From: a virus
Virus record (IMG/VR): IMGVR_UViG_3300007513_000007
Span: 32,001-96,000 of that record
Strand: one strand, 5' to 3'
Length of the DNA stretch: 64,000 bases
Under the pieces are notes generated by a model. That model was not told where the DNA came from. It worked only from the letters and a program-made list of their open reading frames with translations, and did not search any database. Below, in pieces: positions 31,649 to 35,007 of the stretch. The position numbers and the translations under genes were made by a program. The first letter of the stretch is position 1. Every line of letters begins with the position of its first letter.

Positions 31649-32626
31649 TCAAGACCCCCCATTATCCCCAGAGTTATCCACAGGGGGCTTGGTGCCAACC
31701 AAAACAGGCTCCCATGAGGGCTTGAGTGCCGTACCCCAACCTTCCCACAGTTGTGCTGCTTCGGATGCGGGTAGCGTCACGGGCATCTCGCTCGGCCCAT
31801 CACTGCTGAACGCCACACCGGGAACGACTTTCTTGAAACCGATGACCTCGCGCTCGGCTTCGGCAAAGAACCCGTCGAGTTCTGCCTCCCTGTCGGTGCC
31901 TTCAACCCCCAACACCTGCTTCATCACCTGCCACTTGGCCTGTGACGGAAGCACGTTGAACCACGGATCGGGCTGCTTTCCCGGCTCCGGGTACGACAGG
32001 TAGTTGCAGGCACGGAACCCACACTCCCCATCAATGGCCTTGCGGCTCTTGCCCGAAGCATCGAACAGGGCACGCAGTTCCTTCTTCAAGGTCACGATGG
32101 AGGTGTTTACTCGTCCAGCCTGCTTGTCCAAAGTCTTTCCGATGTTGAGGCTCTTCGGGAACCCGCTTCCATACACCCAGGCTTCGAGTTTGATGTCCGT
32201 GAATCCGACTTTCTCCAGTGCTGCGGCCAGCCTGTGGAAAGTCCGCGTCCCACTGAACGCTTTGATGACCCCACCTGATTCAAGTACCCGGTAGGCTTCC
32301 TGCAACCATTGGAGGTGCCATGCTTCCATAGCTTCCAGGTGGTTCCCCATACCTCCCCCGGTCTGGTCATCTGGAAGACCCTCGTTCTCCGCGTTTCGGC
32401 GCTTACCCATTGGTTTCCAATGGTCGTGGGGTTGGGGGCAGTGGCATTTCTTTGCACCGCGCAACCGGCCCCCGCACTCCGCACAAGTCGGATTGGTGGT
32501 TCCGTGCTTGGAGGTGCTGGAGAAGCTGGGCCACTTGATATGCCGTTCACCGATTCCAGGACTGGTGAAGGTGCCGCCATGCTCGTAGGACTTACCGCTC
32601 CCGATCTTGTCCCATTCTTTTCCCAT
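31649..32626 (-). CDS. beta-class N6A/N4C DNA methyltransferase, N-terminal half, second segment
   Basis: (LEF)MGKEWD, EAYRVLESGG..FSGTRTFHRL, WVYGSGFPKS, GWGTALKPSWEP; no FxGxG motif. Confidence 0.85.
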   Translation of the reverse strand: MGKEWDKIGSGKSYEHGGTFTSPGIGERHIKWPSFSSTSKHGTTNPTCAECGGRLRGAKKCHCPQPHDHWKPMGKRRNAENEGLPDDQTGGGMGNHLEAMEAWHLQWLQEAYRVLESGGVIKAFSGTRTFHRLAAALEKVGFTDIKLEAWVYGSGFPKSLNIGKTLDKQAGRVNTSIVTLKKELRALFDASGKSRKAIDGECGFRACNYLSYPEPGKQPDPWFNVLPSQAKWQVMKQVLGVEGTDREAELDGFFAEAEREVIGFKKVVPGVAFSSDGPSEMPVTLPASEAAQLWEGWGTALKPSWEPVLVGTKPPVDNSGDNGGS

Positions 32627-32640
32627 GAACTCAAGGCCAT

Positions 32641-32742
32641 TCAGCCGTAGGGAGGGTCACAAATGACGCTCCCTACGCTGCCCTCCTGGAGTTCGGCCAT
32701 GCGGTTTACGCACTCGCCATGTTTCAGGACAATCTCACTCAT
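32641..32742 (-). CDS. DNA methyltransferase N-terminal 33-aa segment ending DPPYG-stop
   Basis: MSEIVLKHGECVNRMAELQEGSVGSVICDPPYG then TGA; homology resumes 8 nt later in another frame. Confidence 0.85.
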   Translation of the reverse strand: MSEIVLKHGECVNRMAELQEGSVGSVICDPPYG

Positions 32743-33568
32743 CCTCTTCCTCCCTTTGCTGCATCTCCTCTTGGAGTTGCATCCACTTCTGTGCAGACAG
32801 AAGCAGTTCCTCGTCCGGTAGCGTGGACGGGTTCGCTGGGGCCTCCCCCATCGCCACGCATCCTGCCTCATGTTCGTCCATGATGGTTACCAGCTTGGCT
32901 ATGGAGGAGGCATCTCGGAGAGGTCTCTCCAGCGGCTCTTCTTTCCGAGGCTCGAACCAAAGCTGGTCGCCATAGTTCATGAGAAACTCGTCACCTTTGT
33001 GGATGTCCCTCCAAGCAGTGAAATCCAGGAACCTGCGCTGTGTTTTGGGGCAAACGTAGGCGAGCGCAATCGTGTTCCAGTTCTCCTCGGAATGGTTGTA
33101 GAGCATCCCGTACCCCAGTGCGAGGCACTTTACCGGGTCCCTTCTCCAAGGAATGACCATATGCGCCATCAAGGTGAGCTTCGCCATAGACTGGGGGGAG
33201 TCCCTTTGATCTAATGGGCCGGGTGCATACGGTTCCGTGACCACCGACAGGATGGCCTTGTCGGACGTGTAGTTGGTCATGTCTACCGTGTTGTGGGCGA
33301 GTCCGTGCCGCACACTCCCCGCGTTAGTGCAGATGACAAAAACGGGACACCTCTCCACCAATGTCCCTGCCGGTATGTCTTCTCGGGCGTAGATCCCTAT
33401 CCCGGCAGTGCCCTGCCTCATCTCAATCAGGGGGCCGGGTGCTGGCGCTATGTCCGTATGCCCCCACAACGTGCCGCACTGCTTACACTTCCGATAGTTC
33501 TTCGAGCGCCATTGAAAACCGCATGATTGACAAGTAAAGGTGAGGTGTCGAAGGGTTTTCTCGCCCAT
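32735..33568 (-). CDS. SET-domain protein with N-terminal Zn ribbon
   Basis: GIGIYAREDIPAGTLVE, GYGMLYNHS, FTAWRDIHKGDEFLMNYG; CQSC..CKQC. Confidence 0.9.
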   Translation of the reverse strand: MGEKTLRHLTFTCQSCGFQWRSKNYRKCKQCGTLWGHTDIAPAPGPLIEMRQGTAGIGIYAREDIPAGTLVERCPVFVICTNAGSVRHGLAHNTVDMTNYTSDKAILSVVTEPYAPGPLDQRDSPQSMAKLTLMAHMVIPWRRDPVKCLALGYGMLYNHSEENWNTIALAYVCPKTQRRFLDFTAWRDIHKGDEFLMNYGDQLWFEPRKEEPLERPLRDASSIAKLVTIMDEHEAGCVAMGEAPANPSTLPDEELLLSAQKWMQLQEEMQQREEEDE

Positions 33569-35007
33569 CACTCCCCCCACCCGAAGAAATCATCAAGGCT
33601 CTGTTCTTCCTGCTCTACCTTGGGGGCTTCCGACTCGATTGACGCACGATTCCAGCCCTGGTTCTCTGCGTTCCAGTGCCTTACACGGGCATCCGCAATC
33701 TGGATGTACTCTTCTTCCCGCTCAATGCCGATCCCAGAGTGTCCGGTTTTTGTACAGGCGATCATGGTCGTGCCGGAACCAAGAAAAGGGTCCACCACAA
33801 GCCCCTCTTTAGGCACTGTCTCAAGGAGTCTTCGCATCACCTCTACGGGCTTCACCGTCGGATGGGAGTTGTGCCGCTTCTGAACCCCTCGGTTTCGAGG
33901 ATTGTCACCACCCGGATTGCCTTCCTTTCGTCCGTCGTCCCTTTGTGCTGCCTCGATAGAAGCGCACCCTGCTTCTCGTTCGGCTCTCGAAGGCTTGGCG
34001 ACGTAGTGTAGGCGGTCTTCTGGGCTGTCTGCGACAAGGATGCAGTCCCGTACTTCAAAGCCTGCATCCTCCCCGGCACAAGCACCCTTGAACCCCGTAT
34101 CTTCGGATGCCAGAAGCAAGTGCCCTCCTGGCTTCATGACCCGGAGGGCCTCCCCGATCCAATCCCCAACAGCATTGTCTGATTCAGTGAGGATGGCATG
34201 TACCGTGCCGTCTTCGTGCTTGGCCCAGTCGAAATCCGAGGGGTTGGCAATAACAAGGGTGTTGCAGTCATCCAGGTGGTCAGGGGAGACCATCGTCTGA
34301 AGGTATTCTCGGAGTTCTTTGGGGAGCATGAAGTTCTTTACCCGTCCTGAAGGTTGTTTGACCCTCTCCTGGGGGAACTGGTGAAAGAATCGGGCAGCAC
34401 CCCCGGCATCTGCAAACCCCCGTTCAGTTGTGTCCGTGACGGAGTTGGGGTTCCACACCATCGATCCACCCCCTGTCGGATAGATGGGGTTGCCGGTGGG
34501 CTTGCGTACCACCCCTTTAGTGACTCCGCTCTGTTCATCGAGGTCGGCCACAAGGCACCCATCGACACACTCCCAAGCGGGGATCGTTTCGTTTCCGTCC
34601 GGGTCTGTTGCAGGGGACTCCCACGCATCTGGTCGGACATCTTTGCTGCGGCGTGCGCCCCAACCGTGGCGGGGATCTGGCTTTCCCTTTGGGCCGTTGG
34701 GATACCCTTGATGACCCTTCACCTTACGCACGCCGAGGTGCTCGCATCCAGGTTGGTGCTGAAGCACCAAGTTCCCCGGCCAACGGCCAAGAACCTGTCC
34801 GTCCTTCTGGTGGGTGGCGGTTGACCCATAAGCCCCGAAGATACCGTTCCCTTTGGCTGCTTCAGCAGGCTTCGAGTGGGTACTGACCACTTCGCCGTGG
34901 GCTGCTACACGGCATCGGTCGATATTGAGGCCGCCTGTTCCATGATTCAGGGCACATGCAGCAACCGTAGACCCCAGAGGTTTACGGAGAAGGTGGACGG
35001 TTTTCAT
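33568..35007 (-). CDS. beta-class DNA methyltransferase, C-terminal half (SAM-binding)
   Basis: RKPL..GTGGLNIDRCR, GRWPGN, AARFF, HPTVKP, VVDPFLGSGTT, GIEREEEY; DPPY position degenerate (ILTESD). Confidence 0.88.
   Translation of the reverse strand: MKTVHLLRKPLGSTVAACALNHGTGGLNIDRCRVAAHGEVVSTHSKPAEAAKGNGIFGAYGSTATHQKDGQVLGRWPGNLVLQHQPGCEHLGVRKVKGHQGYPNGPKGKPDPRHGWGARRSKDVRPDAWESPATDPDGNETIPAWECVDGCLVADLDEQSGVTKGVVRKPTGNPIYPTGGGSMVWNPNSVTDTTERGFADAGGAARFFHQFPQERVKQPSGRVKNFMLPKELREYLQTMVSPDHLDDCNTLVIANPSDFDWAKHEDGTVHAILTESDNAVGDWIGEALRVMKPGGHLLLASEDTGFKGACAGEDAGFEVRDCILVADSPEDRLHYVAKPSRAEREAGCASIEAAQRDDGRKEGNPGGDNPRNRGVQKRHNSHPTVKPVEVMRRLLETVPKEGLVVDPFLGSGTTMIACTKTGHSGIGIEREEEYIQIADARVRHWNAENQGWNRASIESEAPKVEQEEQSLDDFFGWGE

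Follow-up and report, generated by a model that had tools for sequence, protein, structure and literature searches.

An in-frame stop codon beside a co-varying 5' hairpin interrupts the genes of an old clade of phage DNA methylases: a candidate family of natural stop-hops

The stretch of viral DNA analysed here (the window, 64,000 nt, positions 32,001 to 96,000 of IMG/VR record IMGVR_UViG_3300007513_000007) encodes a DNA methylase whose gene is broken by a stop codon and a change of frame directly after the catalytic motif DPPY. The break is shared by an old and large clade of phage methylases, in which, as we consider on balance probable, a co-evolving 5' hairpin and the stop codon make ribosomes hop over 6-16 nt, a natural stop-hop family. 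For the window, a hairpin-assisted hop from one glycine codon to the next, which would yield the junction DPPYG-LEFMGK, is the best reading of the sequences, and we put its chance slightly above even. The co-varying hairpin marks the short-gap class of the interrupted genes, and both flanks of the interruption are under purifying selection.

The features of the locus are listed in Table 1. In ORF1 lie the N-terminal beta-strand (beta-strand 4) of a PF01555-type DNA methyltransferase and its catalytic motif IV (DPPY). The start codon of ORF1, an ATG with a GGAGG-like Shine-Dalgarno sequence upstream, overlaps the stop codon of a SET-domain gene. Across the 180-kb contig this DPPY is the only one in a methylase-like context. 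ORF2 is open back to the second GGC, lies in the -1 frame relative to ORF1 and has 325 aa when counted from the ATG of FMGK. It contributes the remaining N-terminal half of the methyltransferase, with motifs V-VIII, a Zn-ribbon-like CxxC...CxC insert and a variable region, and its PF01555 match in Pfam is weak. A preliminary description, made from the letters of the window alone, had placed a GGC-TGA-AT-GGC break after DPPYG. This is exact, as deletion of 8 nt restores DPPYG-LEFMGKEWD and the uninterrupted homologs P0003, P0004, P0022 and P0035 read exactly so. The same description had seen no further stops over about 1 kb, which is correct for the downstream ORF but not for the upstream piece, which has just 33 codons.

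Table 1. Positions of the interrupted methylase gene, its elements and the adjoining genes in the window.
Feature	Position	Strand	Sequence or remark
Interrupted DNA-methylase gene		minus	GAC CCT CCC TAC GGC TGA AT GGC CTT GAG TTC ATG GGA AAA GAA TGG GAC
ORF1	32644..32742	minus	33 codons, MSEIV...SVICDPPYG; own ATG at 32742
5' hairpin	32643..32679	minus	AGC.GUAGGGAG.c.GUCA-uuug-UGAC.c.CUCCCUAC.g.GCU
DPPY codons	32658-32647	minus	
Take-off codon GGC (Gly33)	32644..32646	minus	in the P site while the stop occupies the A site
In-frame stop TGA	32641..32643	minus	immediately 3' of the take-off GGC
Spacer AT	32639..32640	minus	untranslated gap TGA+AT = 5 nt; codon-to-codon hop distance 8 nt
Landing codon GGC	32636..32638	minus	decoding would restart at CTT (Leu)
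ORF2	31649..32635	minus	LEFMGKEWD...ALKPSWEPVLVGTKP...; stop 31649-31651
ATG of FMGK	32626-32624	minus	
SET-domain gene	32735..33580	minus	PF00856, 3e-8; flanked by the two methylase genes; stop codon overlaps the start of ORF1
Partner gene, 479 aa	33568..35007	minus	PF01555, 5e-20, residues 282-438; upstream of ORF1

The SAM-binding region with motif I (FxGxG) is absent from ORF2, which ends after LKPSWEP, and DPFLGSGTT sits in the separate 479-aa gene. Fused relatives exist, and comparison with one of them (P0035, 552 aa) reveals in the 479-aa partner an RKPL..GTGGLNID segment, a degenerate catalytic region with TESD replacing DPPY, and the SAM-binding part HPTVKP...DPFLGSGTT. The gene order methylase/SET/methylase is the same in L001 and L007. 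Besides the SET-domain protein, the window neighbours recognized by Pfam are a weak Pyr_excise match, a thymidine kinase, a SprT-like protein and unknowns. In a non-exhaustive Pfam search no homing-endonuclease gene was found among these neighbours or among the upstream neighbours of nine long-spacer loci. The GenBank phage collection yielded no near-identical phage by megablast, and no Rfam match was obtained across 32300-33000 down to E = 1.

In independent metagenomes we identified 67 junctions in which a stop right after DPPYG is followed by 0-10 nt and then by GLEF. The search pattern was restricted to GLEF and required a Gly codon before the stop, so that this codon is imposed in 67/67; although the pattern also permitted TGG as the triplet after Gly, a true stop is found there in all 67 junctions. 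TGA, TAA and TAG as well as all three frames are represented. Two thirds of the junctions (45/67) have gaps of 5, 8 or 11 nt with the stop included, beside which gaps of 3, 4, 6, 7, 9, 10 and 13 nt occur, and AT is among the commonest spacers. An unbiased scan indicates that the spacer tops out at about 10 nt though 25 nt were allowed, that length variation is restricted to the spacer and ends exactly at the landing codon, and that in the downstream frame the four codons GxxF ahead of Met are never disrupted. The LEF codons vary synonymously only, including those of TAA and TAG forms without a start codon ahead of them. Of 166 in-frame relatives, 165 read DPPY-G-LEF, and the link DPPY-x-LEF always has exactly this length.

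The same break is present in JGI, ENA, NCBI and Logan assemblies. In L001 three tandem paralogs each carry the device, and L003 and L006 have an identical ORF2 with differing ORF1. Six loci (L002, L158, L177, L179, L199 and L331) have the form DPPY-stop-N-G without a duplicated codon, while L180 contains a DPPYE gene with a GAG...GAG pair as take-off and landing codons. P0038, for which only the protein sequence is available, reads DLEF and has apparently lost the landing Gly. A junction scan of bacterial and archaeal genomes revealed one interrupted case, in a MAG of candidate division Kazan, and no cultured host.

The 5' arm of the hairpin consists of the Ser-Val-Gly-Ser-Val codons and the 3' arm of the Asp-Pro-Pro-Tyr codons, and at its base the second and third nucleotides of the take-off GGC and the first of the UGA stop are included. 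The result is a 15-bp interrupted helix; the minimum free energy fold of the surrounding 70 nt has -29.5 kcal/mol (z = -2.06). Of the interrupted genes 55% have a helix of 7 bp or more whose end is at the Tyr codon, versus 3% of the intact genes (p = 4e-7), the latter being taken from the same GLEF subfamily with equal GC content. In the class of the window (TGA plus 2 nt), each of the 18 unique genes contains the helix, with 91% of cells paired against 50% in intact genes. With partners slid along the sequence the value drops from 90% to 35-56%, and three to four pairs exhibit compensatory change. RNAalifold recovers the hairpin unprompted, and the AT-rich L152, L194 and L200 form the same geometry from quite different letters. 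The preliminary description did not contain this element, whose restriction to the interrupted genes supports a stop-hop.

Hairpin-bearing relatives occur with in-frame gaps (TGA+0, TAG+0), with +1 gaps (TAG+1, TGA+1, TGA+4, TGA+7) and with -1 gaps (TGA+2, TAA+2). The long-spacer classes are without hairpin and carry an ATACC motif instead, and therefore more than one mechanism may be at work across the spacer classes. For the 8-nt-spacer class RNAalifold gave no consensus structure, nor did it find a helix downstream of the stop (21 sequences, 26 nt past the stop). An extended 'bulged-gap' helix between the landing codon and upstream codons appears in the single-sequence fold of the window; in the alignment just a weak 3-bp version is seen, and it was not relied on.

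In the gene tree 46 of 47 interrupted genes fall into one deep, well-supported clade with long internal branches. Among 45 interrupted relatives dN/dS is 0.31 for ORF1 and 0.17 for ORF2 at dS > 1.3, and no second lesion was found in any of them. The depth of the clade and the purifying selection on both flanks indicate that the device is old and that both parts are translated. A reassigned or suppressed stop codon was considered and rejected: more genuine stops of the genome are TGA than any other codon (62 of 112 long ORFs), the contig encodes no suppressor tRNA, its only tRNA being Asn, and a TGA read as sense would still leave the ribosome in the wrong frame.

Since all frames, all stops and spacers from 0 to 10 nt are represented, only a frame-agnostic mechanism fits. 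While the anatomy, its conservation, the selection on both flanks and the specificity and covariation of the hairpin are shown by the sequences, the course of events given next for the window is inferred, as are the hop, how efficient it is and what it yields. A ribosome would translate 33 codons up to the Gly codon (GGC) after DPPY and meet UGA in its A site. Decoding of the stop would be slow, and the hairpin of the just-translated Val-Gly-Ser...Pro-Pro-Tyr codons would refold behind the ribosome and favour forward motion. A fraction of the ribosomes would retain the peptidyl-tRNA(Gly), move 8 nt forward until it pairs again with the following GGC, and restart at CUU, while those which terminate would release the 33-aa peptide. 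The predicted product is a single polypeptide with the canonical junction DPPYG-LEFMGKEWD, for which the exact-hop junction peptide would be ...ICDPPYGLEFMGK; the fixed DPPY-x-LEF of the in-frame relatives matches the product expected from an exact hop. The fused polypeptide would then be the catalytic and recognition half of a methylase acting with the SAM-binding protein encoded upstream.

Matching of the two GGC codons, as first noted, is exact in the window, but across the relatives the third base agrees at the level of chance (a 'same tRNA' match of 0.69 observed versus 0.66 expected). There is thus no signal of wobble matching, and take-off/landing pairs such as GGA->GGC and GGT->GGA are common. 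Several further observations speak against a hop. The relatives without a duplicated codon offer the Tyr-tRNA no cognate landing codon, and the apparent loss of the landing Gly in P0038 points the same way. The nascent chain has just 33 residues at take-off. Moreover, the enzyme of this lineage is already encoded in separate halves, and a further split is not far-fetched.

Five explanations had been offered for the window without ranking; the short stop-hop is now the best supported, and a trans-complementing 33-aa DPPY peptide stays its main rival, though we judge it unlikely. According to this rival the enzyme has three pieces, the peptide of ORF1 complementing ORF2 and the upstream SAM-binding protein non-covalently. 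ORF2 would be started by termination-reinitiation, either at the overlapping CUG (its C from GGC, its UG from UGA) or at the FMGK start codon AUG, and the hairpin would serve as a backstop against backward sliding of post-termination ribosomes. If this is how the enzyme is built, its architecture would be unusual, with a peptide of the catalytic loop provided in trans. The TGA forms with a -1 gap do always have the stop overlapping an NTG in the frame of ORF2 (TTG in L001 and L007-10), the overlap is ATG in genes with called proteins starting MTGLEF or MNGLEF (P0016, P0069), and L002 is without internal Met (FQGK) yet has a TTGA overlap. Spacer length and frame vary freely like those of adjacent cistrons, and N- and C-halves are already separate genes in this lineage. 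The forms without a duplicated codon suit a split better than a hop, and ORF1 is exchangeable, as the shared ORF2 of L006 and L003 indicates.

However, reinitiation fits poorly with the sequences, because a Shine-Dalgarno sequence is absent (the upstream bases are C-rich Pro codons), the sole overlapping start in the window is CTG, and the stop is followed by a wrong-frame ATG (TGA-ATG) which opens a 177-codon junk ORF; the AT spacer responsible is a common one. A take-off GGG, which would give a GTG start, is found in 1/54 interrupted genes in comparison to 47/122 at that codon in intact genes, and GGC, giving CTG, dominates (19/26). Forms with TAA or TAG that share the hairpin and the 2-nt spacer lack a start before GLEF, yet they keep GLEF with its synonymous variation. 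The hairpin sequesters no start codon, and the spacer has its upper limit at about 10 nt where 25 nt were allowed.

A second alternative, which we regard as improbable, is a forward slide without re-pairing in the P site. Here UGAAU (5 nt) would be skipped and the second GGC decoded in the A site, which gives DPPYG-G-LEF and the predicted junction peptide DPPYGGLEFMGK. The same rule produces the canonical DPPY-G-LEF in forms like L002 and so unifies the genes with and without a duplicated codon, and it is consistent with the absent wobble matching between the Gly codons. Against it, DPPYGGLEF is found in none of the 166 in-frame relatives, and the distance would have to vary from 3 to 13 nt by gene with the landing codon alone defining it.

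Programmed -1 ribosomal frameshifting at GGC-UGA, which had been among the original options as DPPYG-LNG-LEFM, is improbable. It would read DPPYG-LNG-LEFMGK, with the predicted junction peptide ...DPPYGLNGLEFMGK. The gap of the window sets ORF2 in the -1 frame, as do the gaps of two thirds of the junctions, and in this frame the codons spell Leu-x-Gly and vary synonymously (CTG/TTG, AAT/AAC, GGC/GGT). The middle residue nevertheless varies (N, I or T), and the three-residue insert DPPYG-LxG-LEF is present in no in-frame relative (166 examined). An X XXY YYZ slippery heptamer is missing from CCC TAC GGC TGA, with no slippery run past the Tyr codon, tRNA-Gly is unable to re-pair on CGG, and RNAalifold found no stimulatory structure downstream. 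The refolding of an upstream hairpin reportedly attenuates -1 shifts, according to work from the Chang laboratory. As hairpin-bearing relatives, including the sister genes with 0-frame and +1-frame gaps, occur in every frame, the class cannot be accounted for by a fixed -1 shift.

A dead gene, a sequencing error or an assembly error, which a stop and frameshift within a catalytic motif resemble and which had been listed as recent inactivation or misassembly, is extremely improbable and is refuted by an identical break in many independent assemblies that is congruent with the gene tree of a deep clade, by flanks under purifying selection without second lesions, by synonymous sites that have become part of a hairpin restricted to the interrupted genes, and by the three tandem paralogs of L001.

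We found no published description of this stop/gap device of methylases in the literature. Gene calling breaks these genes up into a 33-aa 'hypothetical' protein plus a methylase without catalytic motif, and therefore phage methylomes that are deduced from annotation are in error where this clade is concerned. For decades the evidence for natural bypassing came essentially from T4 gene 60 and its homologs, to which the yeast mitochondrial inserts and the phiHau3 candidate can be added. If ribosomes do hop here, the clade is a source of many natural and independent versions of a minimal bypass element, and dozens of them (every frame, every stop, spacers of 0-10 nt) would form a ready mutational series for take-off and landing. 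They would also permit a direct test of mRNA refolding behind the ribosome as the driver of forward sliding.

With T4 gene 60 the methylase gene of the window shares a Gly take-off codon, a stop directly after it, a matching Gly landing codon and, if ribosomes do hop, a restart at the next codon; with gene 60 and its topoisomerase-gene homologs it also shares the location of the insert within a highly conserved coding site of a phage gene. In T4 gene 60 a 5' stem-loop gives directionality (PMC6551183), and pairing of the mRNA exiting the ribosome was proposed to drive forward bypassing (bioRxiv 10.1101/2024.12.09.627546). In contrast, the gap of gene 60 is 50 nt while the methylase hop would be 8 nt (the non-coding gap in relatives is 3-13 nt, stop included), and the gap is too short to hold a take-off stem-loop. 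In the gene 60 type a nascent-peptide signal holds the peptidyl-tRNA, whereas the methylase chain has 33 aa at take-off and ORF1 is conserved as an enzyme N-terminus. DPP is a known stalling motif. Further differences are the gene family (a PF01555 methylase), the lack of an adjoining homing-endonuclease gene in the window, and the third base of the two codons, which is unmatched across the methylase family.

A further known case is the terminase gene of Streptomyces phage phiHau3. For it a bypass of 7-10 nt with a 5' stem-loop was proposed with some experimental support; inserts of 10 nt (and 7 nt) after a rare UUA are found in 3/100 terminase genes and are a candidate for regulatory bypass (PMC10732093). 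In both cases the frame of a conserved phage gene is broken by very short inserts, next to a slow A-site codon and a proposed 5' stem-loop, and in both the in-frame relatives fix the junction residues, which argues for bypass over a +1 or -1 shift. The phiHau3 trigger is a rare sense codon tied to the availability of host tRNA, while that of the methylase would be a stop codon. Moreover, in comparison to the few terminases with inserts, the methylase device is present in a whole deep clade with covariation evidence for the hairpin. The +1 frameshift of prfB (RF2) at CUU UGA C likewise involves a 'shifty stop' with a poorly decoded A-site UGA and an upstream duplex pushing the ribosome forward. 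There the duplex is formed between Shine-Dalgarno and anti-Shine-Dalgarno sequences 3 nt upstream, and a +1 shift, always into the same frame, lets the tRNA re-pair with an overlapping codon, whereas the methylase duplex is an intramolecular hairpin and the displacement differs between genes.

Naturally split DNA methyltransferases such as M.AquI alpha/beta and M.EcoHK31I consist of separately translated polypeptides, and the present lineage, which parts the DPPY half from the SAM-binding half, resembles them in building a methylase from separate polypeptides. The known splits use ordinary starts and ribosome-binding sites, and to our knowledge no methyltransferase is split directly after motif IV leaving a 33-aa peptide.

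Further counterparts in layout are the synthetic 'stop-hops' of E. coli (Weiss, Dunn, Atkins and Gesteland 1987, as cited in PMC5009743). In the account given there, a stop is flanked by matched codons and 9 nt specify one residue; the relatives with a 0-nt spacer (GGT TGA GGC, GGC TAG GGT) have exactly this arrangement. According to the same review, as of 2016 no natural in-frame stop-hop was known, and shorter counterparts of bypassing were presumed but not found (PMC5009743). If the hop in the methylases is real, they would represent the natural short 'stop-hop' family which was long presumed and stayed undocumented. The synthetic stop-hops, as far as that account describes them, were laboratory constructs of low efficiency, whereas in the methylases the layout occurs naturally, is conserved and has a dedicated hairpin beside it.

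The break that the preliminary description had placed behind the catalytic DPPYG motif of the methylase gene, GGC-TGA-AT-GGC, is exact to the base. Removal of 8 nt gives DPPYG-LEFMGKEWD, as was proposed, and precisely this sequence is found in the uninterrupted homologous proteins P0003, P0004, P0022 and the fused 552-aa P0035. The spacer AT also makes TGA-ATG, which opens an ORF in a frame discordant with the methylase. This ORF is not kept in the relatives, several of which have early stops, and therefore was probably never meant to be translated.

Features of the methylase break in the window and in related DNA loci (L numbers)
Feature	Position	Strand	Sequence or remark
Junction		minus	GAC CCT CCC TAC GGC TGA AT GGC CTT GAG TTC ATG GGA AAA GAA TGG GAC
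ORF1, piece ending in DPPYG	ATG at 32742, stop 32643-32641	minus	MSEIV...SVICDPPYG, 33 codons
ORF2, downstream piece	to 31649	minus	-1 frame relative to ORF1, open from second GGC
Hairpin	32679-32643	minus	AGC.GUAGGGAG.c.GUCA-uuug-UGAC.c.CUCCCUAC.g.GCU
ORF opened by TGA-ATG	32107-32640	minus	177 codons
Methylase in permuted pieces	31649-35007	minus	479-aa C-terminal (SAM-binding) gene, SET-domain gene, DPPY half
Gap, L001 and L007-10			TAC GGT TGA AT GGC
Gap, L003-5			GGC TGA TT GGC
Gap, L002	L002:959-1000		TAT TGA AC GGT; 52% identity
Gap, L006			GGA TAG TACCAT GGC; gap in-frame
Loci compared (ORF2 identical, ORF1 and gap different)	L006:120-200, L003:3969-4045
Tandem DPPY-half paralogs	L001:1761-4041
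Intein-like (Hint) insertion	L003:1935-3875		in neighbouring methylase gene

In about one third of the best 120 homologs the protein begins either with MGKxWD or with a frame-shifted read-in, MRPSLRLNGLEF being one example, and the DNA of six of these contains the same break with differing spacers. The pattern DPPYG-TRR-N(0-14)-GLEFMG matched 6 viral and 49 metagenomic loci. Although TRR also permits TGG, a true stop is present in all 67 junctions. Stop and spacer together comprise 3-13 nt and all three frames occur; gaps of 5 nt (31 junctions), 11 nt (12) and 9 nt (10) predominate, the remaining lengths being less frequent. An unbiased scan, in which only DPPY and MGKxWD 13-40 nt apart were demanded, revealed more forms in other subfamilies, e.g. 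a DPPYE gene with GAG TAA TAATACCT GAG. In every case of that scan the four codons preceding Met (GxxF or ExGF) are intact in the downstream frame, and the length variation lies wholly within the spacer. In six loci (L002, L158, L177, L179, L199 and L331) the stop follows Tyr immediately and the codon duplication is missing, as in TAT TGA AC GGT or TAT TAA GGT. Here a skip of the stop and 0-2 nt would result in the canonical DPPYG..., yet the tRNA-Tyr would have no cognate landing codon. Spacers of 2 nt place a T before the landing Gly codon in 20 of 21 aligned sequences (AT, TT, CT; AC once).

Upstream of the stop, the codons for Val-Gly-Ser-Val-Ile-Cys can pair with those for Asp-Pro-Pro-Tyr. 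In the window the base of the predicted helix extends to the U of the stop and includes nucleotides 2 and 3 of the take-off codon, the Gly codon before the stop. Interrupted and intact genes of the GLEF subfamily (homologs with GLEF after DPPY) were compared at the same GC content (0.57). An unbroken helix of 7 bp or more that terminates at the Tyr codon is found in 55% of the unique interrupted genes versus 3% of 116 intact genes (Mann-Whitney p = 4e-7). All 18 unique genes of the window's class, TGA+2 (TGA with a 2-nt spacer), have a helix of 8-13 bp; none is present where the spacer measures 6, 8 or 10 nt. Among 25 short-spacer sequences 90% of the cells are paired, compared to 35-56% with the partners slid, and compensatory changes affect 3-4 pairs (e.g. 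A-U/G-C/C-G/U-A at one position). In intact and long-spacer genes pairing at the helix cells amounts to 50% and 56%, respectively. The helix was found unprompted by RNAalifold, and AT-rich relatives exhibit the same geometry in different letters (ACGGU...ACCGUAU). Because the sequences are related, shuffle counts make the pairing look more significant than it is; stronger evidence for the putative hairpin comes from the several types of pair and from the difference to intact genes. Spacers of 6-10 nt without hairpin occur in L097, L098, L107, L111, L112, L120, L128, L130, L136 and L180. Such gaps have in common a motif (A/T)TA(C/T)C about 2 nt past the stop, in differing frames, and RNAalifold gave no consensus structure for the 8-nt-spacer class.

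Two models that are indifferent to the frame remain, a hop and a split enzyme. Judged from the sequences, the odds are slightly in favour of an exact Gly-to-Gly hop over stop and spacer. In favour of the short stop-hop considered in the preliminary description, the stop directly adjoins the take-off codon, the two sides of the gap carry a duplicated codon (Gly...Gly; Glu...Glu in L180) and the DPPY-x-LEF link is of fixed length. Three findings argue against a simple hop: the two Gly codons agree in the third base no more than by chance, six relatives lack the duplicated codon, and the long-spacer genes combine the missing hairpin with an ATACC motif.

Rather unlikely is a split enzyme, whose ORF2 would be translated by termination-reinitiation. 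The sole overlapping start in the window is a CTG, immediately followed by the out-of-frame ATG of the 177-codon ORF, and AT, the spacer that makes this ATG, is among the commonest. GGG, which at take-off would make a GTG start and is the commonest codon at the corresponding position of intact homologs, is the take-off codon in 1 of 54 unique junctions versus 47 of 122 intact homologs (sets not phylogenetically matched) and the landing codon in none of the 54. The dominating take-off codon GGC again yields the overlapping CTG. Where the stop is TAA or TAG and the same hairpin is present, GLEF is conserved even though no start codon precedes it. ORF2 has no Shine-Dalgarno sequence ahead of it, and the hairpin does not conceal a start codon. 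A slide across the gap without re-pairing we regard as quite improbable.

The fixed -1 shift to DPPYG-LNG-LEFM, another option of the preliminary description, is quite improbable. A slippery site and a downstream structure are absent, tRNA-Gly cannot re-pair on CGG, and the gaps of sister genes with the hairpin include 0-frame and +1-frame ones. The three added residues occur in no in-frame relative, the DPPY-x-LEF link being one residue in 166 of 166.

A dead gene is the least probable reading; recent inactivation and assembly error, which had also been suggested, are ruled out for practical purposes, as are a pseudogene and sequencing error, by the clade and dN/dS values that follow. In a FastTree phylogeny of the GLEF subfamily, built from 159 N-half proteins and with single branches to be read with caution, 46 of 47 interrupted genes fall into one supported clade (52 rows). 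The internal branches are long, and 7 state changes are needed versus 40.7 with shuffled labels. The dN/dS values from 45 unique interrupted genes are 0.31 for ORF1 (last 28 codons) and 0.17 for ORF2 at a synonymous divergence above 1.3; therefore both pieces have long been translated and functional. The probability left over by all these readings belongs to mechanisms we have not thought of.

The loci L006 and L003 have an identical ORF2 but very unlike ORF1 and gap (in-frame TAG+6 versus TGA+2), and on the tree the TAG+6 genes branch from within the TGA+2 genes. Therefore the junction acts as a recombination breakpoint, with ORF1 and gap as a mobile module.

From motif IV to ...ALKPSWEP, ORF1 and ORF2 together account for no more than the N-terminal half of a PF01555 enzyme. 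In the 479-aa gene upstream, the SAM-binding part (HPTVKP...DPFLGSGTT) is accompanied by a GTGGLNID segment and by a catalytic region that is degenerate (TESD for DPPY); a SET-domain gene is placed between it and the DPPY half, an order kept in the relatives L001 and L007. In L001, 90% identical to the window's gene, three tandem DPPY-half paralogs follow one C-half gene and the SET gene; every paralog is interrupted and has a short ORF1, a hairpin and a stop-gap of its own (TGA AT GGC, TGA TT GGT, TGA AC GGA). This looks like a single SAM-binding subunit for several recognition subunits. Intein-like (Hint) insertions occur in two relatives: in P0003 (482 aa) the DPPY half is hit within its GSGFPKS motif, in L003 the neighbouring methylase gene. 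Thus inserts of several kinds target motifs that are conserved in this family. Besides the interrupted DPPY, the contig of 180,576 bp has none in a methylase-like context. The contig encodes one tRNA (Asn) and no suppressor tRNA, and TGA is its most frequent genuine stop (62 of 112 long ORFs). Genes around the methylase include a thymidine kinase and a SprT-like gene; together with relatives located on IMG/VR contigs of 150-297 kb, this gene content suggests a large uncultured phage. An HNH nuclease gene was found neither in the window nor among ten neighbouring genes tested.

The hop would have mechanistic precedents. The directionality of gene 60 bypassing is due to a 5' stem-loop (PMC6551183), pairing of mRNA exiting the ribosome was proposed as forward driver of bypassing (bioRxiv 10.1101/2024.12.09.627546), and candidate bypasses of 7-10 nt with a 5' stem-loop are reported for the phiHau3 terminase (PMC10732093). 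According to a recoding review from 2016, natural stop-hops were unknown and short counterparts of gene 60 only presumed (PMC5009743); our literature search found no description of the methylase stop-gap element. In its working the methylase device would resemble the bypassing of T4 gene 60 and phiHau3 as well as the synthetic stop-hops of Weiss et al. 1987. In contrast to all three, its gap comprises 3-13 nt including the stop and lacks an in-gap stem-loop, another gene family is concerned, and the break is the conserved state of a whole clade.
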